This document shows positions 193 through 16,426 of a DNA stretch of 64,000 nucleotides, piece by piece. The DNA comes from Candidatus Levyibacteriota bacterium. GTDB lineage: Bacteria > Patescibacteriota > Microgenomatia > Levybacterales > UBA12049. Location: contig JBPOIT010000009.1 of assembly GCA_052034235.1 (NCBI GenBank), positions 136,203 to 200,202 on the forward strand. Direction: 5' to 3'. Position 1 is the stretch's first letter. Each line of letters opens with the position of its first letter. The position numbers and the translations under genes are program-made. The notes under the pieces are model-generated. The model was not told the origin of the DNA. It ran no database searches and saw nothing but the letters and a program-made list of their open reading frames with translations.

Positions 193-633
193 ATGAAAAT
201 CCTTAATAAAAAAGCAGGTTTTGATTATCAATTGCTTGAATCCTTTGAAGCAGGTATTCATCTATTTGGAGCAGAAGTAAAAGCAGCAAGAGCTGGCAAT
301 ATTGATTTGCATGGGAGTTTTGCCAGAATTATCGGTAGTGAGATCTATTTACTTAACGCAAAAATCCTTCCGTATAAATTTGCACGTCCTGAATCTTTTG
401 ATGCCACACGTACACGAAAATTACTTCTGCATAAAAAACAAATCGTCTCTTTAAAGTCAAAAATTATCGGAGCGAATTTGACAATAGTGCCTGTTTCCAT
501 GTATACTAAGGGCAATCTAATCAAGCTCGAGCTAGCCTTGGCGAAGTCTCGAAAAAAGTTTGAAAAGAAAGAGCTTCTTAAGAAGCAGGACCTTGACAGA
601 GAAATAGCAGAATCGTTAAAAGGAAACTACTAA
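193..633 (+). CDS. smpB: SsrA-binding protein SmpB
   Basis: 146 aa; SmpB-like motifs (KKAGFDYQLLESFEAGIHLFGAEVKA...FDATRTRKLLLHKKQI); directly upstream of the tmRNA gene. Confidence 0.9.
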   Translation: MKILNKKAGFDYQLLESFEAGIHLFGAEVKAARAGNIDLHGSFARIIGSEIYLLNAKILPYKFARPESFDATRTRKLLLHKKQIVSLKSKIIGANLTIVPVSMYTKGNLIKLELALAKSRKKFEKKELLKKQDLDREIAESLKGNY

Positions 634-698: not shown

Positions 699-1122
699 GG
701 GGGATGACTTGATTCGACGGGAGAAGTACTTTAAAATTGCAAGCCGACGATGATTCATAGTCGTTAAAAAGGATCAAAAAATAAATGCTAAATCTAGCAT
801 TACAAGCCTAGATGAGAAGCTCGCTAAGCTTCAAGCTCAGTGGGACGCTCTTAATCAAGGCGGCCAACGCGCTTACGCACTCGCTGCTTAAGCCGTAAAG
901 CCAGTTCATACATGTCTTTCCTTATCGGGACAGTAGGGGCTAAAAAACAGGTGAGGAAAACTGTAAAAAGTCAGGTTACGCTTTTTACTGTACACAGTAG
1001 CCTATACTTTGTTATTCCGTCCGACAGGAAACGGCAAAGCGAATTCTAAGAGTCGGATAAGCTTGTAGACGTTTTACATTATCTCTATCCGGACTCCGGT
1101 TCATAACCGGACATCTCCACAC
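699..1122 (+). ncRNA. ssrA: tmRNA (ssrA), not in the ORF track
   Basis: 5' GGGGGATGACTTGATTCGACGGG matches the canonical tmRNA 5' tRNA-like end. 3' T-arm TCCGG-TTCATAA-CCGGA (1094-1110) and acceptor 3' strand CATCTCC (1112-1118) pair with 5' GGGGATG including a G3:U wobble (alanine identity). Internal tag frame ends ...GGQRAYALAA-TAA at 889-891. Confidence 0.85.
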
Positions 1123-2632
1123 TTCCGTTTTTAGCCTGTCCTATTTCGCTAATTAGCTTGACAGGATAGGCTAAAGATGCGGTTCCAAACCCCAAATTAT
1201 AATCGTACCGCAGTTCTTCCTCAAAATACATAAAAAGTATCGCTTTTTTATCGTTGTAGTTATCACTTTTCCACATATCAACAGGCTTTTTTAATGTGTT
1301 AAACACTTTTTCCGAGGCGGTTCCAAACTGTTCTGGGGTGTAACTTTGTTTCAATAAACTCTGCTCTATTTGGTCTTCAGTTTTTACTAATTCTTTAATT
1401 TGTGACTCATACGTACTGATTAATGTCTCATCTTTTGTCTTTCTTGCTCTAGCAGCATACCATTCAATACTCTCCTTTGTTTCTACAAGCTCGGAAGAAA
1501 GTCGTGTTCGATATTCTGTATCCTGCGTCACTCGCTGTTCCCATTGTTCCTGCAATAGGTCCTTAGTTATATCAACATATCCATCTAAAGGCTTTACTCT
1601 CAATAACAACTGTTCAAACTCAGGCTCAATTTTATATTTCCTAACAACCTTCCAACGATAAGGACACTTTTCTGTGCGGCAAAAGTAATTAGGATAATAA
1701 ATACTGCGCCCCTTATTCCAGCTTGCAGTCATAGCCTTACCACAGGCAGCACAAAGCACCCAAGGACGCAAAGGAAAGTCTTTAGAATAATCTTTTCGTT
1801 GCCATGGCTTGGTACGCCCACCCAATCGCTCTTGCACGATCTTGTAGGTCTCAATCGTTATAAACCCCTCATGCTTAGCTTTCATAAGAGGAATGTTCCA
1901 TTTTGGATAAGCAATGTATCCTGCATAGAGGGGATTTTTCAATATCTCTACTGTGGTACTTAATGATGGTCTGTTGGGTAAACCTGCAATCTCATATTGT
2001 TTATGAAGTTCTTGTCTAACTTCCTCCTGAGTAAGCAAAATCCCATCACGATATTTTTCTATTGCATCTTTAAATATAGCTGCATGTGGTTCTACAGGAG
2101 CTAATATCTTCCCATGGAGTGGCTCTCTTTTGTTTTTTAAAGCTGTTGGTGGCATAAAGGACCAATAGCCTCTTTCTAACCTAGCTTTCATTTTTTGAAT
2201 TACTTGCCTTCTATTTTGATTCCTTTCCAGTTGAGCAGTTGCGGCCATTACAGTCTCAACAAATTCTCCTTCGGGTGATTCTTCAAAACGAAAGTTAGGA
2301 CTTTCGACTCTTCCATTTCTTCCATATATCTCACTTTTTAGTTTAAAATGAACCTGTGTATCTCTAGCGAAGCGCTTTAGATCATCAAAGATAACAACAA
2401 CTCTTTCATTGAGATTACCTGAATCATTTTGTTCCAAGCAGACAAGCAACCGCTTCATAGCGGGTCTATCAAATAATCCCCCTGATTTCCCTTCATCTCG
2501 AAAAACATCAATAATCTGATACCCAGCATCTGCTGCATATTTCCTACAACGTTGTTCTTGGCTACCTAAACCATCACCTTCTTTTACTTGTCTTTCAGAA
2601 GACACCCTGCAATAAATAACTGCCTTTGTCAT
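1085..2632 (-). CDS. large serine recombinase/integrase (resolvase catalytic domain, recombinase domain, zinc ribbon)
   Basis: 515 aa; N-terminal IYCRVSSERQ catalytic-serine motif; Cys-rich segment LCAACGKAMT...CRTEKCPYRW; 3' end overlaps the tmRNA 3' end antisense. Confidence 0.9.
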   Translation of the reverse strand: MTKAVIYCRVSSERQVKEGDGLGSQEQRCRKYAADAGYQIIDVFRDEGKSGGLFDRPAMKRLLVCLEQNDSGNLNERVVVIFDDLKRFARDTQVHFKLKSEIYGRNGRVESPNFRFEESPEGEFVETVMAATAQLERNQNRRQVIQKMKARLERGYWSFMPPTALKNKREPLHGKILAPVEPHAAIFKDAIEKYRDGILLTQEEVRQELHKQYEIAGLPNRPSLSTTVEILKNPLYAGYIAYPKWNIPLMKAKHEGFITIETYKIVQERLGGRTKPWQRKDYSKDFPLRPWVLCAACGKAMTASWNKGRSIYYPNYFCRTEKCPYRWKVVRKYKIEPEFEQLLLRVKPLDGYVDITKDLLQEQWEQRVTQDTEYRTRLSSELVETKESIEWYAARARKTKDETLISTYESQIKELVKTEDQIEQSLLKQSYTPEQFGTASEKVFNTLKKPVDMWKSDNYNDKKAILFMYFEEELRYDYNLGFGTASLAYPVKLISEIGQAKNGSVEMSGYEPESG

Positions 2633-3340: not shown

Positions 3341-3904
3341 CTAGGCGTTGCCTTCAGGCCTAGCAGTTGCAGGAAATGTTCTTGGTAAGTCATGGGGCAA
3401 GCCTACTCTCATGAACTGCTTGGCAAAGGCTTGTGCTAAATGCTCTCTGTAAGGAGGAAGTAATCTTACTCTCGTACCATAGGATCCCTTGAAAACTTTT
3501 AAGAATGAATAAGGAACTGTATATATCTGCTTGAGAACTACTCTTTGATAATTAAAACTGTGCCAACGATGCTGATGTTGATTAATAATTCTTGAAGCTA
3601 CAATTTCTTCTTTAACCATTGGCTCCCAGTCGCTTTCGGACATCTTTCCCCCCTGAATTTGTTCTGGAATATCAAACATAGGACATAAAACAACTGTCCC
3701 ATCGGTTCGGTTCATCTTTAACAAATCACATGATTGGGATAAAACGATGACACTTGCTGATTCTTCATCTATTGTGACGGTTTCGCCAGTCTGCGCATCA
3801 TTCGTATACCGCGGAACATATATTGGAAAGTTAAAGAAAATGTCTCCCTGCTCTAGTTGGGTATCTGCTCGTACAACTTTATACCATGGATATGTGTTTG
3901 GCAT
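3341..3904 (-). CDS. hypothetical protein, third gene of the three-gene operon
   Basis: 187 aa; 2-nt gap from the upstream gene; no recognisable family. Confidence 0.55.
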   Translation of the reverse strand: MPNTYPWYKVVRADTQLEQGDIFFNFPIYVPRYTNDAQTGETVTIDEESASVIVLSQSCDLLKMNRTDGTVVLCPMFDIPEQIQGGKMSESDWEPMVKEEIVASRIINQHQHRWHSFNYQRVVLKQIYTVPYSFLKVFKGSYGTRVRLLPPYREHLAQAFAKQFMRVGLPHDLPRTFPATARPEGNA

Positions 3905-3906
3905 TT

Positions 3907-4440
3907 TTAGTCTCCATATTCTCTGTCCTCATCTTTAACAGCAAGTGCGCCAAGTTTACCAGATTTGTTGATTCTTATACCCGACCTTACCTTAGTAAGT
4001 TTTATATATGTCATCGCATCAATTTCATAATCTTCATATAGGCGTTTTTGAGGAGTAGCAACAGGATAATCAAATGCTTTTGCAAGAGTAATATATGTGT
4101 CAAACGCGAATGGAGTAGGAGATGCTATTGTCGTAACCATTGCATAACTTCCAGCATTTCCTTCCCATTCGACCCATCCTCTTTGACGAGCTTCTGTTAC
4201 AGGTAAAGATGCAGTATGTTCGTAAGCGGTTTGTGCATCGTCAGACAAGCCAATGAGAATACTACCTCCAGAATACTGCATATGTCCCAATGGATTAACA
4301 ATCGGTGCCGTGGCTGCAAAATCAGTATGATCTTGAGAATAGGGCTGAGCATGAACAGAAGACAAACTAGAACCGATATTCTCCTTACTTGCCAAATGCT
4401 CCATATATAATTTACTGTAATCTCGATAGTCTGCTAACAT
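3907..4440 (-). CDS. hypothetical protein, second gene of the three-gene operon
   Basis: 177 aa; 2-nt gaps on both sides. Confidence 0.55.
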   Translation of the reverse strand: MLADYRDYSKLYMEHLASKENIGSSLSSVHAQPYSQDHTDFAATAPIVNPLGHMQYSGGSILIGLSDDAQTAYEHTASLPVTEARQRGWVEWEGNAGSYAMVTTIASPTPFAFDTYITLAKAFDYPVATPQKRLYEDYEIDAMTYIKLTKVRSGIRINKSGKLGALAVKDEDREYGD

Positions 4441-4442
4441 AT

Positions 4443-5246
4443 TTATTTATCGTGTTCTGCTAATGATGAAAACCACTTTTTAGCGACACCATGAGAATTG
4501 TCCAACCACTTCTTAAAAGCATCTTCATCGTAGTAGTCTGGACATTCATTGTTATTTGAAACTATTTCATTATCAAATACAATGTGCTTGATCTCTTTTT
4601 CAATCCCTTTATTGTCTTTCTCTTTCTTATATCCTGTTGCAACCCTAAGTATACCTTGTGCTTTCGGTGTTTCTAATTTAAAAACGGTCGAGAAGTTGAT
4701 ATCTTGTACAGGAGTTGTTGTTGCATCATCCGATGGAATTCCTATTGGTAGCTGGACATGATAATTTAGCTTATCTTTTAATAAAGCAAATAAATCTTCT
4801 TTCTCATCAAATAGAATTGCATTTCTGTATCGGAGTGAGATAGCTTCTGGCTTTAATTTTGTACTTTCATATGCTTTTATGAGCTTTTTTCTCAGGAATA
4901 AAGCATTGTCTAGAAATGACTTCCAGTCGTAGTTCTCCGTATAGTTTAATGTTGAGACACCAGGTCCAAGTTGAACTAAAGGCCATCCATTAATCCCTCC
5001 CGTTCTAAATTGATAGCGTGGTATAAATGGCAGGAGTTCCAACGGGGCATCGTTTTCTTTTGTAGGAACAGCCGAACTAAATCTGTCTTTAACTCCTTCT
5101 GCGAACATTCCCAAAGCAATAGGGAAAGTTACATCCTTTTGGAATGCAGGGTTTTGACTACTTTTTTCTAGCTGCCAACGTATGGATAACCATGCTTCTT
5201 GTAAGGGACTTTTTTCATCTTTTGTAGAAGACTTTTTCATATTCAT
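4443..5246 (-). CDS. hypothetical protein, first gene of the three-gene operon
   Basis: 267 aa; sigma70-like promoter immediately upstream. Confidence 0.55.
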   Translation of the reverse strand: MNMKKSSTKDEKSPLQEAWLSIRWQLEKSSQNPAFQKDVTFPIALGMFAEGVKDRFSSAVPTKENDAPLELLPFIPRYQFRTGGINGWPLVQLGPGVSTLNYTENYDWKSFLDNALFLRKKLIKAYESTKLKPEAISLRYRNAILFDEKEDLFALLKDKLNYHVQLPIGIPSDDATTTPVQDINFSTVFKLETPKAQGILRVATGYKKEKDNKGIEKEIKHIVFDNEIVSNNNECPDYYDEDAFKKWLDNSHGVAKKWFSSLAEHDK

Positions 5247-5262
5247 GTTAGTTTACAAATGT

Positions 5263-5291
5263 ATTATACAGGGAATTGTGATTTATTCCAA
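5263..5291 (-). promoter_or_regulatory. sigma70-like promoter for the 4443-5246 operon (-35 TTGGAA, 17-nt spacer, extended -10 TGTATAAT)
   Basis: Minus strand reads TTGGAAtaaatcacaattcccTGTATAAT, ending about 16 nt before the ATG; short leader with no SD. Confidence 0.4.
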
Positions 5292-6487: not shown

Positions 6488-7276
6488 CTATTTTGGTTTT
6501 GGAATCTCTTGTGTTGCTTTAGGAGAAACAATTGATTTTCGAAAGTCCTGCAGACTTTTTTCAGCAGCTTTTATTGCCTCTTCATGTTCTTCCATTTCCT
6601 CTTTTGAATATTCTTTTGCTACCCAATCGCTTCCATTTTTCACCAAGGACATCATTTGAATGGGATCAGAAACGCCTCCAGGACTTACAGAAATAGCATG
6701 ACGTAACGTCCAAAAAGTAGCAAAGATTGCCTCATTGATATTTGGTGGACAATCACCATCCCAAAAGACTCTCCTAATAAGTCCCAAAAAGGGGTCAGCG
6801 ATAGCTTGTCCACTCCCAATACTTGCAAAAGGTAGGTCATCATTAGTTTCCTCTGGTGATCCTTGATGATCAAATTGAAACAAAGAGGATTTATGTTTTA
6901 TAGGAAGAGCTACAAGTGTGGAACATAAAGCGCTCTGTGTTGCCACGCCATTGCCCAATACCGGGGCAGAAATACGAGCTGTTTCCAGTTCAGGTAAAAT
7001 ATGATTTCTAAACTTTTGACTTATAATAGTCATTGCTTCAAAAGGAACTTTGCCAGATAAGCCTCCTGCTTGATAGAGTTTATCCATTTCACCCTTTAAT
7101 CTTTGACCCAAACCTACTGGGCCGGATACACCAACGATAATTTGATCTTGCAAAATCGAAAGTTTTTTTGTAGGCTGCATTGCGGTAGGTGTACCAAGCG
7201 CACCGAAAGTAGCAGCACCATCTGCGCCCATCACGATACTACCATCTTTACATTTTATTCCAATAATAAGAGTCAT
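6488..7276 (-). CDS. HslV/proteasome-beta family Ntn-hydrolase homolog with an ~80-aa C-terminal extension
   Basis: 262 aa; N-terminus MTLIIGIKCKDGSIVMGADGAATFG...KKLSIL...IIVGVSGPVGLG and later FASIGSGQ align with HslV [23 protein letters not shown]...KKVRRL...VIAGFAGGTADA...IAIGSGG; 8-nt gap to the upstream Panacea-like gene. Confidence 0.65.
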   Translation of the reverse strand: MTLIIGIKCKDGSIVMGADGAATFGALGTPTAMQPTKKLSILQDQIIVGVSGPVGLGQRLKGEMDKLYQAGGLSGKVPFEAMTIISQKFRNHILPELETARISAPVLGNGVATQSALCSTLVALPIKHKSSLFQFDHQGSPEETNDDLPFASIGSGQAIADPFLGLIRRVFWDGDCPPNINEAIFATFWTLRHAISVSPGGVSDPIQMMSLVKNGSDWVAKEYSKEEMEEHEEAIKAAEKSLQDFRKSIVSPKATQEIPKPK

Positions 7277-7284
7277 TCTGCCTA

Positions 7285-7758
7285 TTAATCCCTAAATACA
7301 CTATTTTTTTTGTATTCGGGGAATTCTTTATAAACTGAGGAGACAAGCTCCTGAAAAGATAAGGGAAGCATCCAATCAATCAACTGCTTTAAATATTTAG
7401 TTGCTTCCTCTGTCACCTGTTCGTGTAATTCTTTAGCTCGTTTCTTGCCGCTGCTTGTTATGTTGTATTTACGTCCAGCACTTTGGGCGGAATGAGTCTC
7501 GACATATCCTTCCTTTTTCAAAAGGTCTGCATCGTGGTATATCCCTATATCAAAAGGGCCATAATTATACGCAACAAAATGGTAGAAATCTTTGGTCTCT
7601 TTGGGCATGGCATGATGCAATAAAAATAAGGACTTTTGGAGTTTTACTGGTGTAAGGCCAGTTTTATCTGCTTCCGCAATAACTAATAAGGTCCAGTCTT
7701 TTCTCTCAATATTCATTGGGACAATTGTATCATATACGGATAACTGCCACCGGTGCAA
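7285..7758 (-). CDS. Panacea (DUF4065, PanA/SocA-like) domain protein
   Basis: 157 aa; GLTPVKLQKSLFLLHH ... FVAYNYGPFDIGIYHD resembles Panacea-domain consensus (KLQKLLYF...W.YGPV.P.VY). Confidence 0.55.
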   Translation of the reverse strand: MHRWQLSVYDTIVPMNIERKDWTLLVIAEADKTGLTPVKLQKSLFLLHHAMPKETKDFYHFVAYNYGPFDIGIYHDADLLKKEGYVETHSAQSAGRKYNITSSGKKRAKELHEQVTEEATKYLKQLIDWMLPLSFQELVSSVYKEFPEYKKNSVFRD

Positions 7759-8363: not shown

Positions 8364-8404
8364 TGTCCACCAATAAAGCCGCAGTAATGCGGCTTTTTTT
8401 GTGG
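8364..8404 (+). repeat. hairpin-containing ~40-nt repeat, copy 1 (orphan terminator-like: AAAGCCGCA-GTAA-TGCGGCTTT followed by a 7-nt T-run)
   Basis: tgtccaccaataaagccgcagtaatgcggctttttttgtgg; no co-directional gene ends here; near-identical copy at 11033-11075. Confidence 0.5.
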
Positions 8405-8496: not shown

Positions 8497-9534
8497 ATGG
8501 ATACGAAAAGTAAAATTCTTGAGATAGCATCAAAGGAAACAAAATTTAAAACGTCAGATGTTGTGAAATCGTTGCGTGGAAATGTATCAAGACAATTTAT
8601 AAGCTACGAGATAAATAATCTAGTAAAACAGGGCATACTTGTAAAAGGTGGTTCTACTAAAAACTCATTTTATACGTTACCCTCAAATGCAATTGTTCTT
8701 GGAACTAAATTTCATAAACGGTTAACGAATAAAGATCTCAAGGAACATGAGGTATTTGATAAATTGCAGCATCAAACTACTTTCATTGAAAATTTAAGAG
8801 AAAATGTATATAGCATTCTTGCATATGCATTCTCTGAGATGCTGAACAATGCGATAGAACACTCAGAATCAAAATATATTGAAGTCTCTGTCGAAAAAAT
8901 ACAAGATAATTTTGTTTTTGTTGTAGATGATTTTGGAATTGGAGTTTTTAGAAATGTGATGAATAAAAGAAAACTTAATTCTGAAATTGAAGCAATACAA
9001 GATCTTCTAAAAGGTAAAACAACAACACAACCACAAGCGCATTCAGGAGAAGGGATATTCTTTACGTCAAAAGCTGCAGATGTATTTATATTGGAAAGCT
9101 TTGGATACAGATTGAGAATAGATAATGTAATAAACGACATCTTTCTAGAAGAATTAAAACCATCAAAACAAGGAACTAGAGTTACTTTTACCATTTCGAT
9201 AAACTCAAAAAGACATCTAAATAAGATTTTTAAGGACTATCAAACTGATCCTGAAGAAATGGCTTTTGATAAAACAGAAGTCAAAGTGAGACTTTACACA
9301 ATGGGAACAATTTATATTTCGCGCTCTCAAGCTAGAAGAGTATTAACAGACTTAGAAAAATTTCGATCAGTTATTCTTGACTTCGATAAAGTTCCGACCA
9401 TTGGACAAGCATTTGCAGATGAAATTTTTAGAGTATTTCAGACAAAACATCCAGAAATAACAATAAAGCCAATCAATATGAATGATGCAGTTTCTTTTAT
9501 GATAGGTCGTGTAGAAAAACTAAACTCTGATTAG
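8497..9534 (+). CDS. wHTH - GHKL (HATPase_c-like) ATPase - STAS-like (DUF4325-like) three-domain protein
   Basis: 345 aa; Bergerat-fold motifs N-box EMLNNAIEH, G1 DDFGIG, G2 SGEGIFF; C-terminal RRVLTDLEKFRSVILDFDKVPTIGQAFADEIF resembles a STAS/anti-sigma-antagonist fold. Confidence 0.55.
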   Translation: MDTKSKILEIASKETKFKTSDVVKSLRGNVSRQFISYEINNLVKQGILVKGGSTKNSFYTLPSNAIVLGTKFHKRLTNKDLKEHEVFDKLQHQTTFIENLRENVYSILAYAFSEMLNNAIEHSESKYIEVSVEKIQDNFVFVVDDFGIGVFRNVMNKRKLNSEIEAIQDLLKGKTTTQPQAHSGEGIFFTSKAADVFILESFGYRLRIDNVINDIFLEELKPSKQGTRVTFTISINSKRHLNKIFKDYQTDPEEMAFDKTEVKVRLYTMGTIYISRSQARRVLTDLEKFRSVILDFDKVPTIGQAFADEIFRVFQTKHPEITIKPINMNDAVSFMIGRVEKLNSD

Positions 9535-9795
9535 AATCTGCTTCGTCGTTTATCCCAGTTACTTAATGAGGTATACCATGAGAATAAATTATGCCTTGAC
9601 TGCAAAAGTAGAAACCACTTCCAATTATAATCTTAATTCTTGTTCCAACTTATATCTAAAGTGTCCACAAGTTTAAAATCCTGTTACAATTAGCGTTTTT
9701 ATTATTAATAATCATTTTCTAAAAATGCGAAATACCCGTTTAGCTACGTTATTAACTAAGCTTAAGATTATTAATTAAATTTTTCTTTTTTCTCT

Positions 9796-10887
9796 TCACC
9801 GCGGTTTATATTTTAACTTTTGCACTGGATTATCAATAAGCAGAAGTAGCATAATTGATGCAATAACCGTTACAATAATAATCGTCAAACTAAAAAGAGG
9901 ATTTTGCATAGCAAAATTAAGGTAATAAGTATTATAAATCTGGATTACAAATATATGTGTTATATACATTGGATAGGATAAACGGCCCACAAAATTATCC
10001 ACCTTGCTCAATTTTGTAAGCTTAAAAATAAATGGAATAGATACTACTAGGAGAATATATAACAGTATACGAAATGGATTATAGGTGTATAAATCTATTC
10101 CTGGAATTTGTGAATAGAAGACAATACTAAAAACGAGGGTTGCAAACAGAATCCATGGAATTTTTGACGGTACATGTTTCAATCGTATATACCTATACAG
10201 TAAATATGAATAATGCCCAGCGAGGAAAAAACAAATTTCAGCTGGGAAGAAACGATAAGGCCACGGTTCAAAAGTTAAACCTATTACATAGAGAAAACAT
10301 TTTATAAAAAGACTTAGTGAAAAAACAGTGAGAATAAATTTCCATCCGCGTTTAAAGATAAACGGAGCAATCACATAAAAACTTAACTCTATTCCAAGGG
10401 TCCAAGCCTGTGGAACAAAAAGAAAACTTTCCAGCCAGATTTTTGTCGTAGTATATTGCTGCGTAAAAAACAGTAATCCGGTATGAGTATTTAAACTCAT
10501 AAAAAAGAGCATGTCTTGACCAAAAAGAAATAAATTTGTAAATATAAAATAAAGTAAGGTCAAAGGATTCATATAAGGTATATATGTAATATAGGCAATG
10601 AAATGATTATCTAAATGTGCAAAATGCCAAAATAATGAGGTTATAAATACCATCAGAAGTACTGTCCAGTACATCGGATACAATCGCAAGAATCTGTTTT
10701 TCAGAAAGTGTATATAGGTCTTCTGGCCTTTATTATATTTTTCATGCAAGACTAGAGACATATAAAACCCAGAAAGGATAAAAAATGATTCGACAGCAGT
10801 CATACCTCCTACTAATTTAACACCAAAAATTGGCAATGTATGTCCAACTATTACAGCCACTGCAAGCAAAAAACGTATTAATCCCAT
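9796..10887 (-). CDS. acyltransferase family 3 (OafA/YrhL-like) membrane O-acyltransferase
   Basis: Multi-TM protein with FFILSGF motif; the ORF-track start 11031 probably over-extends, internal start MGLIRFLLAVAVIVGH at 10887 preferred. Confidence 0.7.
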   Translation of the reverse strand: MGLIRFLLAVAVIVGHTLPIFGVKLVGGMTAVESFFILSGFYMSLVLHEKYNKGQKTYIHFLKNRFLRLYPMYWTVLLMVFITSLFWHFAHLDNHFIAYITYIPYMNPLTLLYFIFTNLFLFGQDMLFFMSLNTHTGLLFFTQQYTTTKIWLESFLFVPQAWTLGIELSFYVIAPFIFKRGWKFILTVFSLSLFIKCFLYVIGLTFEPWPYRFFPAEICFFLAGHYSYLLYRYIRLKHVPSKIPWILFATLVFSIVFYSQIPGIDLYTYNPFRILLYILLVVSIPFIFKLTKLSKVDNFVGRLSYPMYITHIFVIQIYNTYYLNFAMQNPLFSLTIIIVTVIASIMLLLLIDNPVQKLKYKPR

Positions 10888-11032
10888 GTGAATTGAGTTT
10901 AGCAGACGAATATAGCGTATGTATATCGGAATGCCAATCGGCACCGTAACACTGATCGTATATGGTTGTTCACGAGCATCGGAAAAAATACCATATACAT
11001 CCTTTCCAATATATTTCAGATTTGTCCACATA

Positions 11033-11075
11033 ATTAAGCCGCAGTAATGCAGCTTTTTTATTGGTATAATAGATT
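11033..11075 (+). repeat. hairpin-containing ~40-nt repeat, copy 2 (tgtccacataattaagccgcagtaatgcagcttttttattgg)
   Basis: About 38 of 42 nt identical to 8364-8404, same orientation, one stem mismatch. Confidence 0.5.
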
Positions 11076-11087
11076 GCGGGTGGCTTC

Positions 11088-12608
11088 ATGACTCCAAAAA
11101 AAATCTTTCTGCTTCTTATTCCTTTTATATATCTTCTTTTTCTGCTTTTAAAAGTTGATCCGAGTTTCGATGTGGATTTGGGGAGGCATATTAAAATGGG
11201 CCAGATTATTAGTGAGTGTGGTTGTGTTCCTGATCAAAATTTATTTTCGTTTACACACCCGGAATATAAAACGGTAACACATTCATGGCTAAGTGAAGTG
11301 ATTTTTTTCCAATTTGCATCTCTCTTTGGGATTACAAGTTTACTTTATTTGAAGGCAGGAATTATAGTTATTACCTTTGGGATAGTTTATATGTTTTCTG
11401 TAAAGAAAGAAGCGTTTCTTACCTCCGTTTTATTTAGTCTACTTACAGTTGCGATTTTTGCAACAAGATTTACCGTTAGACCTGAACTCTTTAGTTATCT
11501 TTTTATTGCGCTTTTCCTGCTCATTTTCGAACTCTATAAAAGAAGGCATAAAATGATATTTTTATGGCTTTTGCCGTTTATAACTGTGCTTTGGGTTAAT
11601 ATGCATATTTATTTTTTTCTGGCATTCTTGCTGTTTGCATCTTTCTTGGTTGAAGATATAATCACAAACAAAAAATTTAATAAGGCATTTATTCCGCTTT
11701 CTCTTGTTATGTTATGTGCGCCATTTATTAATCCAGCTTTTGTTGCAGGAGCGTTCTATCCGCTGCATATCTTTAATAATTACGGGGCGCCAATAATTGA
11801 GAATTACCCGGCTGCAAGACTACTTACTTTTTATACTCCTTTGTCACCACAATTTATAACGATTCTTATTTTTGAAGTGATTAGTTGTTTTGCATTGGCA
11901 GGAGTACTTTTATATCCAAGAAAAAAAATGATAGCAGTAAAAGTGAATACAACAGTCGGAATTTTACTGGGGCAACTATTAATTCGTTGTATGGCCCTTT
12001 TTTCACTCCTTGGCTTACCGTTCGTTATAAAAGAATATATTTATCTTGAAAAGCATGTGACAAAGTCTGCGAAAAAAAAATTCGCCATAGTTCTCAATGG
12101 CGTATTGTTGATAAGTTTTATCATCCTTTTTGTTACGCAGATAAAACAAATCATCATGTATGAACAATTACATTTTGGTTTTCAAATGTCTCAAGAAAGA
12201 GCGGTTAATTTCTTTTCGAAAAATAATCTACAGGGAAATATTTTTAACAATCCATCAGTCGGAAATTATTTAGTTTATCGTCTTTATCCAAATCAAAAAG
12301 TATTTATTGATAGTAGACCGGAAGCGTATCCCTCAATTATTTTTGACGAATATTTCAAAATGCTGCAAGATAAAAATTATTTTAATGAGCAGGCCGAAAA
12401 GTATAACATCAATGTGATATTTTTTAGTCCGATAGAATATCCACAATTTTCAAGGACATTTCTAGCAAATATAATAGATGATTCTCATTGGGCACCGGTT
12501 TATTGGGATGGAAATGTTATGATTTTTGTTAAGAATACAAAGGAAAACGAAATCATTATTAAAGAGAATAGCCAATTGAGAACTATGCTACTCAGAACAC
12601 TACATTAA
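11088..12608 (+). CDS. polytopic membrane protein, GT-C-like glycosyltransferase (tandem paralog 1 of 3)
   Basis: 506 aa, >10 TM; shared motifs DLGRH, SWLSEV, WVNMHIYF and C-terminal QGNIFNN...VFIDSRPEAYP with 12644 and 14915. Confidence 0.6.
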   Translation: MTPKKIFLLLIPFIYLLFLLLKVDPSFDVDLGRHIKMGQIISECGCVPDQNLFSFTHPEYKTVTHSWLSEVIFFQFASLFGITSLLYLKAGIIVITFGIVYMFSVKKEAFLTSVLFSLLTVAIFATRFTVRPELFSYLFIALFLLIFELYKRRHKMIFLWLLPFITVLWVNMHIYFFLAFLLFASFLVEDIITNKKFNKAFIPLSLVMLCAPFINPAFVAGAFYPLHIFNNYGAPIIENYPAARLLTFYTPLSPQFITILIFEVISCFALAGVLLYPRKKMIAVKVNTTVGILLGQLLIRCMALFSLLGLPFVIKEYIYLEKHVTKSAKKKFAIVLNGVLLISFIILFVTQIKQIIMYEQLHFGFQMSQERAVNFFSKNNLQGNIFNNPSVGNYLVYRLYPNQKVFIDSRPEAYPSIIFDEYFKMLQDKNYFNEQAEKYNINVIFFSPIEYPQFSRTFLANIIDDSHWAPVYWDGNVMIFVKNTKENEIIIKENSQLRTMLLRTLH

Positions 12609-12643
12609 AAAGTATTACTGCTCTCGTGTATAATTATTTATAG

Positions 12644-14047
12644 ATGCATACTCGTTTAATGGTGGTTCTATTTCTACTCTTTCTCTCTCTGTTCTTTTTT
12701 AAAAGCCTTGCACTTGATCCTGATTTAGGTTGGCATCTTGCAACTGGTAGTTATATATTATCATATGGATTTCCACAGACAGACCCTTTTTCTTATAGCA
12801 TGCCTAGTTATCCAATCATTTTTTATGCTTGGTTAACAGATGTTATACTCGCAAGTCTTTATAAAGTAGTAGGTATTCCAGGACTAGCATTTCTTGTCGC
12901 TGCGTTTGCAATTGCTAGTCTTTGGTTGCTTCTTCCAAAATCAAAACAAAATCACATTGTTATACCACTATTGTTATGTGGCTCGACATTGTTATTTGTA
13001 ATAGGTATTAGAGCACAGGTTTTTACCTGGTTACTATTTGCATTGTTCCTCTTAGTACTAAAAAAAGAAAAGAAACAGAAATATATCCTACTGCCGATTA
13101 TCTTTTTGTTTTGGGCCAATATGCATGGGAGTTTCATTTTAGGTCTAGGTATAGTTGCACTCCATAGTATTATTGCTGTCTATACACGTAAGAAAAATTA
13201 CTTACATGATATAGCAGCTGGTTGCATTACCTTTCTCGTAACATTGATTAATCCTTATGGTCTGAAATTGTGGGAAGAGACCTTTCAAATTATATTTTGG
13301 ACTGAGAAACATTTTTTACTTCTAGATTGGTTCCCTGGAATCTTTGTTCCTTATATTCCACTCTGGATTATTTTCTTTTTATCAACGTTTTTCCTTTATA
13401 AATTAGCTAATCGATACACTTTATTTGAGAAAATAGGTTTTATTGTGCTTTTTAGCATTGCAATGGGCGCGATTATCGATATACCCTATTTCGCAATTTT
13501 TGCTTTTCCAATTCTCATAAAAGGTTACAACTATTATCTAGCTGAACCAAAGACAGAGAAAAAACTATTTCTTTCAAGCAGACGTTTTCTTAGTATTATT
13601 TGTCTCGTTATCTTTCTTCACGGAATATTCTTGTTTTATGCAAAACCATATCCTGAAAATGCAGTACGTTATTTAGACAGCCAAAATATTCGAGGGAATA
13701 TTTTTACCGACTTTAATTGGGGTGGATATATTTTATGGGCTTTACCGGATAAAAAAATCTTCATCGATGGACAAATGACTCATTGGAAACAACAAAATAC
13801 ACAAATTGGAGAAAGTGTTAATGCGTTTCAAGAATATCTTCGTATTGCTAGTAGGAAAGAGAGCATAGCAAAATTCACGACAAAATATCATATAAATACT
13901 TTGATTCTGCCGCCGGGCTTTGGAGATTCACATGTTTCAAACGGAGCGAAATTATATCCAGCAGTCTCAGTACAACTCATGAAAGGTGGCTGGGAAATTA
14001 TATATAAAGACGAAATAGCAATTGTTTATCGCAAGATAAGTAAGTAA
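12644..14047 (+). CDS. polytopic membrane protein, GT-C-like glycosyltransferase (paralog 2)
   Basis: 467 aa; DLGWH, AWLTDV, WANMHGSF, RGNIFTDFNWGGYILW...IFIDGQ. Confidence 0.6.
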   Translation: MHTRLMVVLFLLFLSLFFFKSLALDPDLGWHLATGSYILSYGFPQTDPFSYSMPSYPIIFYAWLTDVILASLYKVVGIPGLAFLVAAFAIASLWLLLPKSKQNHIVIPLLLCGSTLLFVIGIRAQVFTWLLFALFLLVLKKEKKQKYILLPIIFLFWANMHGSFILGLGIVALHSIIAVYTRKKNYLHDIAAGCITFLVTLINPYGLKLWEETFQIIFWTEKHFLLLDWFPGIFVPYIPLWIIFFLSTFFLYKLANRYTLFEKIGFIVLFSIAMGAIIDIPYFAIFAFPILIKGYNYYLAEPKTEKKLFLSSRRFLSIICLVIFLHGIFLFYAKPYPENAVRYLDSQNIRGNIFTDFNWGGYILWALPDKKIFIDGQMTHWKQQNTQIGESVNAFQEYLRIASRKESIAKFTTKYHINTLILPPGFGDSHVSNGAKLYPAVSVQLMKGGWEIIYKDEIAIVYRKISK

Positions 14048-14050
14048 CTC

Positions 14051-14914
14051 GTGTATAATGAAACAATGTGGTTGTCTTTACTCTCACTTCATTTGGTAGG
14101 AAATGTTGGCTACAATTTGCTTCTTAGAAAGTCAGTCCTCGCAAAAACTGATAAATGGTTACTCGCCACTATCCTTCAAACAGGGATTGCCATTCCAGCT
14201 TTAATCATAACTCTTTTTAAACCATTCAATTTTTCAGGTTTTAATGATTTTGATATTTTTTTGTTTATCAGTACGATGACTTTAACGATTCTTTTGCAAG
14301 TGTTAAATGTTAAAGCATTGCAGTATCTTGAAGCAAGTGTCTATTCCGTCGTTTATAATACTCGAATTATTCTCATTTCTATTATCGGAACATTACTGTT
14401 GGCCGAAAAATTAACGCCTTTACAAATTATTGGCGGTTTGCTCATTTTTGGTTCTGTTTTTATTGTTAGACAAAAAGAAAAATTTACTGTCACAAAAATC
14501 GGTTTGCTATACGGTTTTGGAGCTGCATTGACGTTGAGTTTTCTTAACGTAACAGAAAAACTTTTAAATCAGAGTGTTGGATTTTTTGAATATTTTTTAC
14601 CTGAATCTATTGCGTGTGCTGTTATTATGTGGGTAATCGTCATAATCCGAAAGACAAAAGTATCCTCGACGCTTTTTACAAAACCCTCAAATATTTTTCT
14701 GATGGGTTTTCGTGCATTATCTGCATTTGGTTTTTCAGCGGCGATTATTTATGGGCCTGTTGCGCTTTCAAATTACATAGCTAGTTTGATCGTTGTTTTG
14801 ACGGTTATTTGTGGTGTACTTTTTCTAAACGAACGCGATTATCTGAAATCAAAAATAATTGCAGCTAGCATTGCCTTTATTGGTTTAACATGTATTTTAT
14901 TTGCAGGATTTTAA
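14051..14914 (+). CDS. DMT/EamA-like 10-TM transporter (possible lipid-linked sugar flippase; inference)
   Basis: 287 aa, two similar ~140-aa hydrophobic halves; embedded between GT-C paralogs. Confidence 0.45.
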   Translation: MYNETMWLSLLSLHLVGNVGYNLLLRKSVLAKTDKWLLATILQTGIAIPALIITLFKPFNFSGFNDFDIFLFISTMTLTILLQVLNVKALQYLEASVYSVVYNTRIILISIIGTLLLAEKLTPLQIIGGLLIFGSVFIVRQKEKFTVTKIGLLYGFGAALTLSFLNVTEKLLNQSVGFFEYFLPESIACAVIMWVIVIIRKTKVSSTLFTKPSNIFLMGFRALSAFGFSAAIIYGPVALSNYIASLIVVLTVICGVLFLNERDYLKSKIIAASIAFIGLTCILFAGF

Positions 14915-16426
14915 ATGCAAAAAATATTACTTTCTCTCTGCTGCATTGTACTTTTTTTACTACTTTTCGTGGGGGTTTTTCATCCTATAAAATCAATTAA
15001 TGAAGATTTAGGTAGGCATTTGCTCCTCGGAGAAATCATTAGTCAGACAGGAAATGTTCCAACAATTAATCTTCTTTCTTATACCTATCATGACTACCCG
15101 TTTATTAATTCTCATTGGCTTTCCGAGGTTGTTTTTTACCAAGTAGTAAGCAGGGGAGGATTTGTGATGTTACTATTTTTCACAACTATGCTAACTGTTG
15201 TTTCCTTTTCCTTACTTTTTACTTTCGCGAGTAAACATTATGCTTTATCATATAGTTTATTAACGGGTGTTGTCTTACTGCCTGTTATTTTGAGAAGGAG
15301 TGAAATACGTCCTGAAGTTTTCAGTTTTTTCTTTGAAGCAATTTTTCTCCTGATTCTTTTTACTTATAGATCTAAATATACGAAATGGATTTATCTTCTT
15401 ATTCCGTTGCAAATACTTTGGGTTAATATGCATATCTATTTTGTGATAGGAATAATTCTTATCATAATCTTTCTTTTTGATTTACTTGTTAGACAAAAAT
15501 TTCATTTAAATTATAAAACAAAGGTATTAACTTTTGTTTTTCTTATTACTGTATTAAGTACTCTCTTTAATCCGAATGGTATACATGGTTCACTTTTCCC
15601 TTTTTTCGTTTTGCAAAATTATGGAATGCCCATTCTTGAGAATCAAAGTATTTTTCTCATCACTAATCAAAATCATATCTTTCAACTTGCGTATAGCGTG
15701 CTAATCATCATCGCAGTATTCATGGCCCTTTTCTTAAACAGAAAAAAGACTTCTTCGAGTGATTGGCTACTGGTTATCGTTTTTTCAATTTTGGCGTTTA
15801 CTGCTGTTCGAAATATTCCTCTTTATGCATATGCAGTGTATGTGCCATTAACTGCTTTATTTTCCAGATACATACCTTTAGTGGGTAAGATCTTCTCAAA
15901 TATTTATTCAAAAACGTTTGTAAAATCACTCAAACTATTTTCTCTCTCTATGCTCATCATTTTTTTAATATTCTATCTTTTTACTATTTCGACAACACGT
16001 CCTTTTGGATTCGGTGTTATTGAAAATGCAAAAGGAAGCGCTGATTTTTTTCTCAAAAACAAGTTACAAGGTCCCATGTTTAATAATTTCAATACGGGCA
16101 GTTATTATGCTTACAGATTTTATCCCAAAGAAAAAATATTTGTTGATGGAAGACCTGAGGCGTATCCAAAAGCATTTTTTGAAGATATCTATCTTCCGAT
16201 GAGAAGAAATCCTCAAATGTTTGCAAAACAAATGAAGGTGTATGATTTTAATACGATCATTATTTCAGACTGGAAATATGGCGGAGTAGAAAAGAACGTT
16301 ATTGAAATGTTGCAAAATGACAAGAGGTACGCATTAGTATATCTTGATGAACATGAATTAATTTTTGTAAAACGAATTACGGAGCATACAGAAGTTATAT
16401 CTCATTACGCTATCGAAAATGAATAA
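14915..16426 (+). CDS. polytopic membrane protein, GT-C-like glycosyltransferase (paralog 3)
   Basis: 503 aa; DLGRH, HWLSEVVFYQ, WVNMHIYF, QGPMFNNFNTGSYYAYRFYP...IFVDGRPEAYP. Confidence 0.6.
   Translation: MQKILLSLCCIVLFLLLFVGVFHPIKSINEDLGRHLLLGEIISQTGNVPTINLLSYTYHDYPFINSHWLSEVVFYQVVSRGGFVMLLFFTTMLTVVSFSLLFTFASKHYALSYSLLTGVVLLPVILRRSEIRPEVFSFFFEAIFLLILFTYRSKYTKWIYLLIPLQILWVNMHIYFVIGIILIIIFLFDLLVRQKFHLNYKTKVLTFVFLITVLSTLFNPNGIHGSLFPFFVLQNYGMPILENQSIFLITNQNHIFQLAYSVLIIIAVFMALFLNRKKTSSSDWLLVIVFSILAFTAVRNIPLYAYAVYVPLTALFSRYIPLVGKIFSNIYSKTFVKSLKLFSLSMLIIFLIFYLFTISTTRPFGFGVIENAKGSADFFLKNKLQGPMFNNFNTGSYYAYRFYPKEKIFVDGRPEAYPKAFFEDIYLPMRRNPQMFAKQMKVYDFNTIIISDWKYGGVEKNVIEMLQNDKRYALVYLDEHELIFVKRITEHTEVISHYAIENE

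Follow-up and report, generated by a model that had tools for sequence, protein, structure and literature searches.

A widespread three-gene module with a putative toxin of the MazF/CcdB fold in a Candidatus Levyibacteriota genome

In the type II toxin-antitoxin systems MazEF, Kis-Kid (PemIK) and CcdAB, the antitoxin gene lies upstream of the toxin gene to which it is translationally coupled, the antitoxin is an acidic and fast-evolving protein, and the conserved part of MazE, Kis and CcdA is located at the C-terminus. Other systems make use of a third component: TAC systems, e. g. the HigBA-SecB-like ones, consist of three co-transcribed genes, and here the third protein, a SecB-like chaperone, accompanies the labile antitoxin. 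In CmdTAC, it is through this component that the antitoxin is linked to the sensing of phages (PMC11618068). Finally, the omega-epsilon-zeta and PaaR2-PaaA2-ParE2 systems are arranged in the order accessory protein, antitoxin, toxin, and their antitoxins have no DNA-binding domain of their own. In this work, we have analysed a stretch of 64,000 nucleotides from a Candidatus Levyibacteriota bacterium (the window; positions 136,203 to 200,202 of contig JBPOIT010000009.1, assembly GCA_052034235.1) that harbours an operon of three genes, referred to as A, B and C. We propose that this trio is probably a widespread, as yet unnamed tripartite toxin-antitoxin-like module in which C acts as the toxin, B as the antitoxin, and A as an accessory protein.

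The trio shares with MazEF, Kis-Kid and CcdAB the position of the presumed antitoxin gene upstream of the toxin gene, the apparent translational coupling of the two, and the acidic and fast-evolving nature of the partner, and in the relatives of B it is again the C-terminal part that is conserved. The B-C pair has the organisation of a type II system, i. e. two small co-oriented genes with the antitoxin gene first, a gap of 2 nt, and conservation as a pair; by analogy, we infer that B is labile and that it binds and neutralises C. The trio differs from these systems in that it usually has a third gene, encoding a protein of the TIGR04255 family. As in the TAC systems, a third protein thus occurs together with the antitoxin, and the coupling to phage sensing as in CmdTAC serves as our working model for A. 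However, A is not SecB-like (it has another fold and no SecB match in Pfam or NCBIfam), it is encoded by the first rather than by the last gene, and the fold of C is unlike those of HigB and of the CmdT ADP-ribosyltransferase. The gene order is that of omega-epsilon-zeta and PaaR2-PaaA2-ParE2, and with an antitoxin that lacks a DNA-binding domain as in these systems, the regulation could be supplied by the separate first gene. Here, the difference is that A has no recognisable DNA-binding domain, its resemblance to the TATA-binding protein (TBP) having a TM score of <0.4, and that no operator-like inverted repeat was found at the promoter of the trio. In the type III systems ToxIN, AbiQ and CptIN, the antitoxin is a repeated RNA, whereas in the trio a protein-coding gene occupies this slot and a search of the operon with Rfam gave no RNA family. 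Our literature search for tripartite modules with a MazF fold revealed nothing that describes the C family.

All three genes are located on the minus strand: A (4443..5246; 267 amino acids) is the first gene of the operon, followed by B (3907..4440; 177 amino acids) in the position of the antitoxin, and by the candidate toxin gene C (3341..3904; 187 amino acids). The junctions between A and B and between B and C read TAA-at-ATG and TAA-aa-ATG, respectively, and thus have a gap of 2 nt each, in agreement with a preliminary description of this DNA that had reported the three open reading frames (ORFs) and their spacing. Public gene callers place the start of A two codons later, at 5240, which would result in a protein of 265 amino acids. 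The repetition of the three-gene order in unrelated genomes indicates that the genes are real. No Shine-Dalgarno sequence is seen upstream of A or B. For C, a GGAG element can be read off the sequence within the 3' end of B (3912..3915, minus strand), 7 nt before the ATG, and this arrangement is consistent with translational coupling of C to B. The preliminary description had also proposed a near-consensus promoter followed by a leader of 16 nt devoid of a Shine-Dalgarno sequence. This holds true for the site, a sigma-70-like candidate (TTGGAA-17-TATAAT; 5263..5291, minus strand) that matches the consensus at 10 of 12 positions and ends 16 nt ahead of the ATG at which A first starts, for its spacing, and for the leader. 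The surrounding 4 kb are AT-rich and contain 17 comparable sites as compared to 11.4 +/- 3.0 in shuffled sequences, and taken by itself the match thus carries little weight. A TG directly abuts the TATAAT and does not form a TGn extended -10 motif; TG-containing -10 elements (TGTATAAT or TGGTACAAT) are present at a similar place upstream of A in two relatives (loci L004 and L010).

The toxin-antitoxin reading is supported by the toxin fold of C in combination with an antitoxin-like middle gene. An AF2 model of C obtained with an alignment of 46 sequences (pLDDT 89.5, pTM 0.81) predicts an SH3-like barrel with a C-terminal helix, i. e. the CcdB/MazF fold that is known from the MazF, Kid, CcdB and ToxN toxins. 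The protein belongs to a large family with homologues in 3340 clusters of the protein collection; the 120 homologues listed are all devoid of Pfam domains, and they go by the name "hypothetical protein" wherever a source name is shown. In the 46-sequence alignment, W7, Q19-G20-D21, C59-D60 (in SQSCD), C74 and R145 are invariant, and the same is the case for P151-Y-R-E154, F160, F164-M-R166 and G168-L-P170. The C-terminus, a helix plus a tail, is exceptionally conserved (RLLPPYREHLAQAFARQFMRVGLPxDLP). C appears to have this set of its own in place of the catalytic residues of MazF. The biochemical activity or the target of C is probably unlike that of canonical MazF. According to the model, C represents a new sequence family with a toxin fold and probably with a different active or target-binding site. 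A distant C-like branch (L110, 1410-1952; L111, 2057-2617), encoded downstream of TIGR04255 genes, is recognised by the hidden Markov model (HMM) of the C family with an E value of 7e-7 and is not covered by any Pfam model. It has kept the signatures IRQGDIF, VITQDCD, GRLxDD and HFRE, and its existence implies that the superfamily is wider than the 3340 clusters counted.

The invariant residues could also be read in another way: C might be a cysteine-dependent, protease-like hydrolase that processes B or a host protein, with Cys59 at the N-terminus of a helix and the MazF-like barrel as a mere scaffold. Q57-S58-C59-D60 is indeed invariant and located at the start of helix 58-67 of the C model. 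However, the family has no invariant histidine, as H155 is replaced by lysine or arginine in the distant C-like branch, and this branch has not conserved Cys74 either. We therefore regard a hydrolase activity as very improbable and keep to C as a toxin of the MazF/CcdB fold.

The middle gene behaves as expected for an antitoxin: B is acidic (pI 5.2), it is the fastest-evolving of the three proteins, it is encoded upstream of C with translational coupling, and one relative is fused to a Phd/YefM domain. The variability of B is evident from the comparison of the window with L004 and L005: identities are 52 and 55% for A, 65 and 51% for C, and only 35 and 24% for B. In a word-index search of 5.8 billion clusters B found only itself, and a phmmer search of 1.8 billion representatives yielded no credible relative but only repeat-like matches in giant proteins. 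In the family as a whole, the N-terminal halves of the B proteins resist alignment, whereas the last ~45 residues share the motif (E/D)(E/D)(I/L)LxWD-x5-PPPRxSGTIRVxLxxxGRxKPxPxxDPWE, which an iterated HMM detected in 62 of 80 unique B proteins. When metagenomes were scanned for the motif, the full alignment turned out to be too variable to be used, and a narrower one retrieved only 9 loci. In the window, the C-terminal 45 residues of B (RLYEDYEIDAMTYIKLTKVRSGIRINKSGKLGALAVKDEDREYGD; 3910..4044, minus strand) are a possible counterpart, assigned by position and by eye only: RSGIRI and an acidic tail are visible, and hhalign finds the motif weakly (E 0.023) and in the right register. A telling relative is L050, where B and C form a unit of two genes next to a glycosidase gene and the motif follows an N-terminal Phd/YefM antitoxin domain (Pfam 6.7e-11). 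By analogy, this B protein has the layout known from canonical type II antitoxins, with an N-terminal domain for DNA binding or dimerisation and a C-terminal toxin-binding segment. Reading by eye suggests RHH-like (ribbon-helix-helix; L086) and AbrB-like (L084) N-termini in two further B proteins. Phd/YefM-, RHH- or AbrB-like N-termini occur in modules without A. At the other extreme, some B proteins of just 67-90 amino acids consist of the motif alone.

The preliminary description had judged none of the three products to be recognisable. This is still true for B and C with respect to the family libraries, C being recognised by its fold, but not for A: the protein matches the NCBIfam family TIGR04255 (positions 4-242 of the 252-position model) with an E value of 9.6e-21 and 74.7 bits as compared to a cutoff of 30, and all of the 49 A-type proteins encoded upstream of C homologues match this family as well. 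Among 44 TIGR04255 partners, P14, E17, G46, F80, Q92, N101, Y106, Y140, W247, H252 and F259 (numbering of A) are conserved. Neither the sequence of A nor a profile finds a solved family member among the PDB sequences, and searches of the literature for TIGR04255, IPR026349 or CHP04255 returned no papers. The slot of A can be taken by a second family, altA1 (215-265 amino acids; L016, L017, L024, L038, L073 and L087), with junctions of -4 to +3 nt. Its members share 33-48% identity among themselves and align weakly but collinearly with TIGR04255 (hhalign E 0.003, probability 10.6%), and none of them passes the TIGR04255 model. We also considered that B might have an N-terminal extension only if A is present, and this idea was dropped as the lengths of B with and without A do not differ significantly (Mann-Whitney p = 0.37).

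The three genes form a conserved unit in very different organisms. A scan of one genome per species for relatives of C identified at least 546 loci, 80 of which were examined together with the contigs found earlier. The A-B-C proteins have 270, 180 and 185 residues in L004, next to smpB; 268, 189 and 187 in L005, among TraG, peptidase M23 and PLD genes, i. e. in a conjugative-like context; 270, 175 and 178 in L009, in a Planctomycete-type context; 281, 140 and 214 in L010, where they follow smpB and the transfer-messenger RNA (tmRNA) gene; and 282, 132 and 195 in L013. Across contigs from Candidate Phyla Radiation (CPR)-like bacteria, Planctomycetes and others, A has ~270, B ~95-195, and C ~180-215 amino acids, and the junctions range from -4 to +15 nt, with A-B nearly always at -4 to +2 nt. 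In 88 of 93 loci, C is immediately preceded by a small ORF on the same strand. The 74 unique informative loci comprise 48 with the order TIGR04255-B-C (~65%), 6 with altA1-B-C, and 20 with B-C alone (27%; e. g. beside trpA), which identifies B-C as the conserved core of the module. A search that started from the homologues of A arrived at the same layout, a TIGR04255 gene followed by a gene for 127-135 amino acids and by one for a distant C-like protein; the synteny is thus recovered from the side of C as well as from that of A. The relatives of C are distributed among Poribacteria, Planctomycetota, Chloroflexota, Acidobacteriota, Bacteroidota, Cyanobacteria, Omnitrophota, Levyibacteriota and other bacteria, and among the archaea in Methanoperedens, Methanophagales, Aenigmatarchaeota and the Asgard lineages Promethearchaeota and Jordarchaeum. 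In viruses, the C family is rare, with only 7 loci in 2.9 million viral contigs, and tblastn searches of plasmid and phage collections with C or A returned nothing. There is also no confident homology to phage structural or housekeeping proteins, the sole PHROGs match of C being the weak one to phrog_4575 (E 8.5e-5), a family of unknown function.

The neighbourhood of the relatives is mixed: the 133 flanking proteins include Schlafen/AlbA_2 proteins (9), HATPase_c_4 proteins (6), type IIG restriction-modification enzymes (3) and AAA_15/21 proteins with AriA-like matches (3), but these defence-type neighbours come largely from related Poribacteria genomes, and many others are housekeeping genes. 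The link to defence islands is therefore only partial. These data bear on the idea that the trio is no conflict system at all but a conserved regulatory or metabolic module that resides on an island by chance. The many relatives that are located among housekeeping genes, such as trpA, PRAI, dehydrogenase and ribosomal protein genes, would fit to such a function, as would the GC content, which is no different in the remainder of the window, and the lack of any matching PADLOC model. A regulatory or metabolic role does not easily explain the sporadic distribution over distant phyla and both prokaryotic domains, the toxin fold of C, the very fast evolution of the middle component, or the surroundings, i. 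e. the ssrA site with a recombinase in the window and restriction-modification, Schlafen or conjugative-like contexts in other genomes. In our opinion, there is only a slim chance that this explanation is correct. The suggestion of the preliminary description that the operon is a candidate for a novel defence or toxin-antitoxin system is supported by the fold of C, the antitoxin-like B, and the lack of a match to any known system, and it has to be restricted with respect to the defence islands. The operon can still be called novel, since A, B and C matched no known defence system of PADLOC at E <= 0.1 and no Pfam model exists.

How might the module work? We assume that A, which is translated first, most likely acts on or through B, either as a stabiliser or as a sensor in the manner of the TAC chaperones. 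Alternatively, A might regulate the operon in the way omega or PaaR2 do. Such a role as a regulator or antitoxin helper would fit to the order accessory protein, antitoxin, toxin, and to the fact that DNA-binding-type N-termini of B are seen in modules that lack A. B would be made just upstream of C as its acidic and fast-evolving neutraliser: in most members, the C-terminal segment of ~45 residues would hold C, as is the case in MazE, Kis and Phd, leaving the N-terminal half free to vary. If B is lost, be it by proteolysis, by the shut-off of host expression upon phage infection, or by the loss of the ssrA-linked island, C would be set free and growth would stop. The outcome would be addiction to the island or abortive infection; by analogy, the trio may thus possibly have an anti-phage role. 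The toxicity of C, its binding by B, the role of A and the trigger are all parts of this model that we infer. As the C family spans bacteria and archaea, the target of C should be universal. It is tempting to go one step further and to envisage a pan-prokaryotic class of tripartite abortive infection or addiction systems, in which A guards or senses via the hypervariable N-terminus of B, the C-terminal peptide of B is a portable neutralisation module shared with AlbA_2/Schlafen-type and Clp-like effectors, and C acts on a target common to bacteria and archaea, either by a new Cys/Asp/Arg/Glu chemistry or by a CcdB-like poisoning of a protein; in this extended form, the idea is doubtful, although we consider it possible.

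A number of observations weigh against the toxin-antitoxin reading, and they concern all three proteins. For C, no link to MazF or CcdB can be found at the level of the sequence, and their homology rests on the fold only: the protein has no match in Pfam, NCBIfam or PADLOC at E <= 0.1, and thus none to PemK_toxin or CcdB, neither phmmer with the single sequence nor hmmsearch with the profile gave a match to PDB sequences at E <= 10, and in hhalign the C profile reached a non-significant probability of 0.3% with five MazF-type sequences that served as approximate queries. The catalytic Arg and Thr of MazF have no conserved counterparts in C, as judged by the motif register only, in which VIVLSQSCD and VVLCPMFD take the places of RPAVVLS and LCVPCTT. 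Instead, C is characterised by QGD, SQSCD, C74 and PPYREH...FMRVGLP. Moreover, MazF toxins are basic proteins that bind RNA, whereas members of the C family have a median pI of 5.7 and thus range from acidic to neutral, and C is ~75 residues longer than the toxins of MazEF, Kis-Kid and CcdAB.

For B, we note that the protein of the window has no match in Pfam, NCBIfam, PHROGs or PADLOC and thus lacks the DNA-binding domain of type II antitoxins (AbrB, RHH or Phd), in contrast to the antitoxins of MazEF, Kis-Kid and CcdAB and to B of L050 with its Phd/YefM domain. The motif HMM does not reach B of the window or its two closest relatives at E <= 1. Furthermore, two genes located directly upstream of C encode B-like C-termini fused to a RES domain (L049, 367-1488; 4.2e-8; 373 amino acids) or to a GNAT acetyltransferase domain (L037, 4642-5976; 444 amino acids), and both domains are usually toxin domains. 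The motif is also found in the absence of C. In Poribacteria, motif-only ORFs of 74-108 amino acids (L025, 7164-7391; L044, 8353-8577; L071, 7053-7355; L053, 8532-8765) are not followed by C, and those of L025, L044 and L071 directly precede genes for proteins of 459-471 amino acids, which in L025 is an SLFN_AlbA_2 plus HATPase_c_4 protein. Similarly, on two groundwater CPR contigs without a C gene (L107, 153-758; L108, 2491-3096), a B-like protein of 201 amino acids has a truncated motif, and its gene runs into the start of one for a ClpB-D2-like AAA+ protein of 427 amino acids (AAA_2 1.5e-34, ClpB_D2-small 1.9e-14). Hence, the motif might serve more generally and not only for the binding of C.

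These findings raise the possibility that the roles are reversed: B would be a modular effector with a variable N-terminal "warhead", the motif would dock it onto C, and C would be an adaptor, an immunity protein or a regulatory subunit. The hypervariable N-termini of B, the two toxin-type domains, the occurrence of the motif before other large proteins, and the fact that C is not basic all speak in favour of this proposal. Yet, the MazF/CcdB fold is so far essentially known from toxins, and the invariant polar residues of C (D21, C59, D60, R145, R153, E154) are typical of an active or target-binding site. In addition, the B proteins that are made up of the motif only have no warhead at all, and one B protein carries the Phd/YefM domain of an antitoxin. 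A reversal of the roles thus seems unlikely to us, and we continue to favour C as the toxin and B as the antitoxin.

For A, the conserved residues contain no Arg cluster and no nucleotide-binding motif and do not suggest any known active site, and the fold assignment is ambiguous, with guanidino kinases, S-adenosylmethionine decarboxylase (AdoMetDC) and TBP as candidates. If the similarity of A to the glutamine synthetase/guanidino kinase-like fold is taken seriously, A might covalently modify C or B, e. g. at an invariant Cys or Arg, as in type VII systems, and the binding of B would not be the main means of control. C does have the invariant residues Cys59 and Cys74 and several invariant Arg residues that could serve as acceptors. 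The identity of A to the kinases, however, is only 5-7%, and Foldseek prefers AdoMetDC and TBP with TM scores of <0.3. No A is present in 27% of the modules, and A can thus not be essential for the control. An enzymatic control by A is therefore rather improbable, and we prefer to see A as an accessory protein of a B-C toxin-antitoxin pair.

The principle of toxin-antitoxin systems and the toxin fold are known, but as far as databases and papers show, neither the sequence families nor the antitoxin motif nor the partnership with TIGR04255 has been described. The module provides a functional context for two orphan families, TIGR04255 and the C family, which has more than 3000 clusters and is not represented by a Pfam, NCBIfam or PADLOC model. 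C would be a new branch of the MazF/CcdB fold that is invisible to sequence methods, and its different conserved residues may go along with a novel target or chemistry. With hosts among CPR bacteria, Planctomycetota, Poribacteria, Chloroflexota, cyanobacteria, methanogens and Asgard archaea, the module is an unusually broad candidate for a toxin-antitoxin or defence system that is missed by the current defence finders. Moreover, as its third gene is optional and its antitoxin modular, it lends itself to a comparison with the TAC and omega-epsilon-zeta systems and to studies on the evolution of three-component toxin control.

The operon resides in a block that carries a recombinase gene and is located next to the tmRNA gene. 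The smpB gene (193..633) is followed by the tmRNA gene ssrA (700..1122, plus strand), which ARAGORN overlooked and which Rfam detects over the full length of the model (RF00023, 109.1 bits, E 1e-41), and smpB/tmRNA is a classic hotspot for islands. The adjoining gene (1085..2632, minus strand) encodes a large serine recombinase of 515 amino acids with Resolvase (Pfam 1.7e-23), Recombinase and Zn_ribbon_recom domains; its ORF overlaps with its 3' end the 3' end of the tmRNA by 38 nt, and the block that bears the operon abuts the tmRNA 3' end. The preliminary description had placed the operon on an integrase-bounded island inserted at ssrA. Both the tmRNA gene and the recombinase, which turned out to be of the large serine type, are present. 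On the other hand, the 3' end of the tmRNA is not duplicated within the window, i. e. there is no attachment (att) repeat that would mark the far border of an island, and the GC content of the island does not differ from that of the rest of the window. A location of the trio next to smpB or tmRNA is seen in three CPR-like genomes, i. e. that of the window and those of L010 and L004.

The PanA-like and ATPase neighbours mentioned in the preliminary description are real: a SocA/Panacea-like gene is located at 7285..7758 (minus strand; PADLOC PDC-M19A 3.5e-17, NCBIfam SocA 2.1e-5), and the gene at 8497..9534 (plus strand) encodes a protein of 345 amino acids that combines an ATPase domain of the GHKL type (HATPase_c 7e-7) with a DUF4325/STAS-like domain at its C-terminus (3.2e-17). 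Only 8 nt downstream of the SocA/Panacea-like gene lies a gene for a proteasome/HslV-like Ntn-hydrolase of 262 amino acids (6488..7276, minus strand; Pfam Proteasome 1.4e-8; HslV-family peptidase in PHROG), and together the two resemble a PanA-type antitoxin and an unusual, protease-like partner. Two hairpins of 33 nt (8372-8404 and 11032-11064) are 88% alike and look like terminators rather than att sites. In L010, the trio is followed by genes for a UvrD-like helicase, a LEM-3-type GIY-YIG nuclease, a DUF2779 protein and a reverse transcriptase (RVT_1), and this region (9646-16276) resembles a defence island at the same ssrA hotspot.

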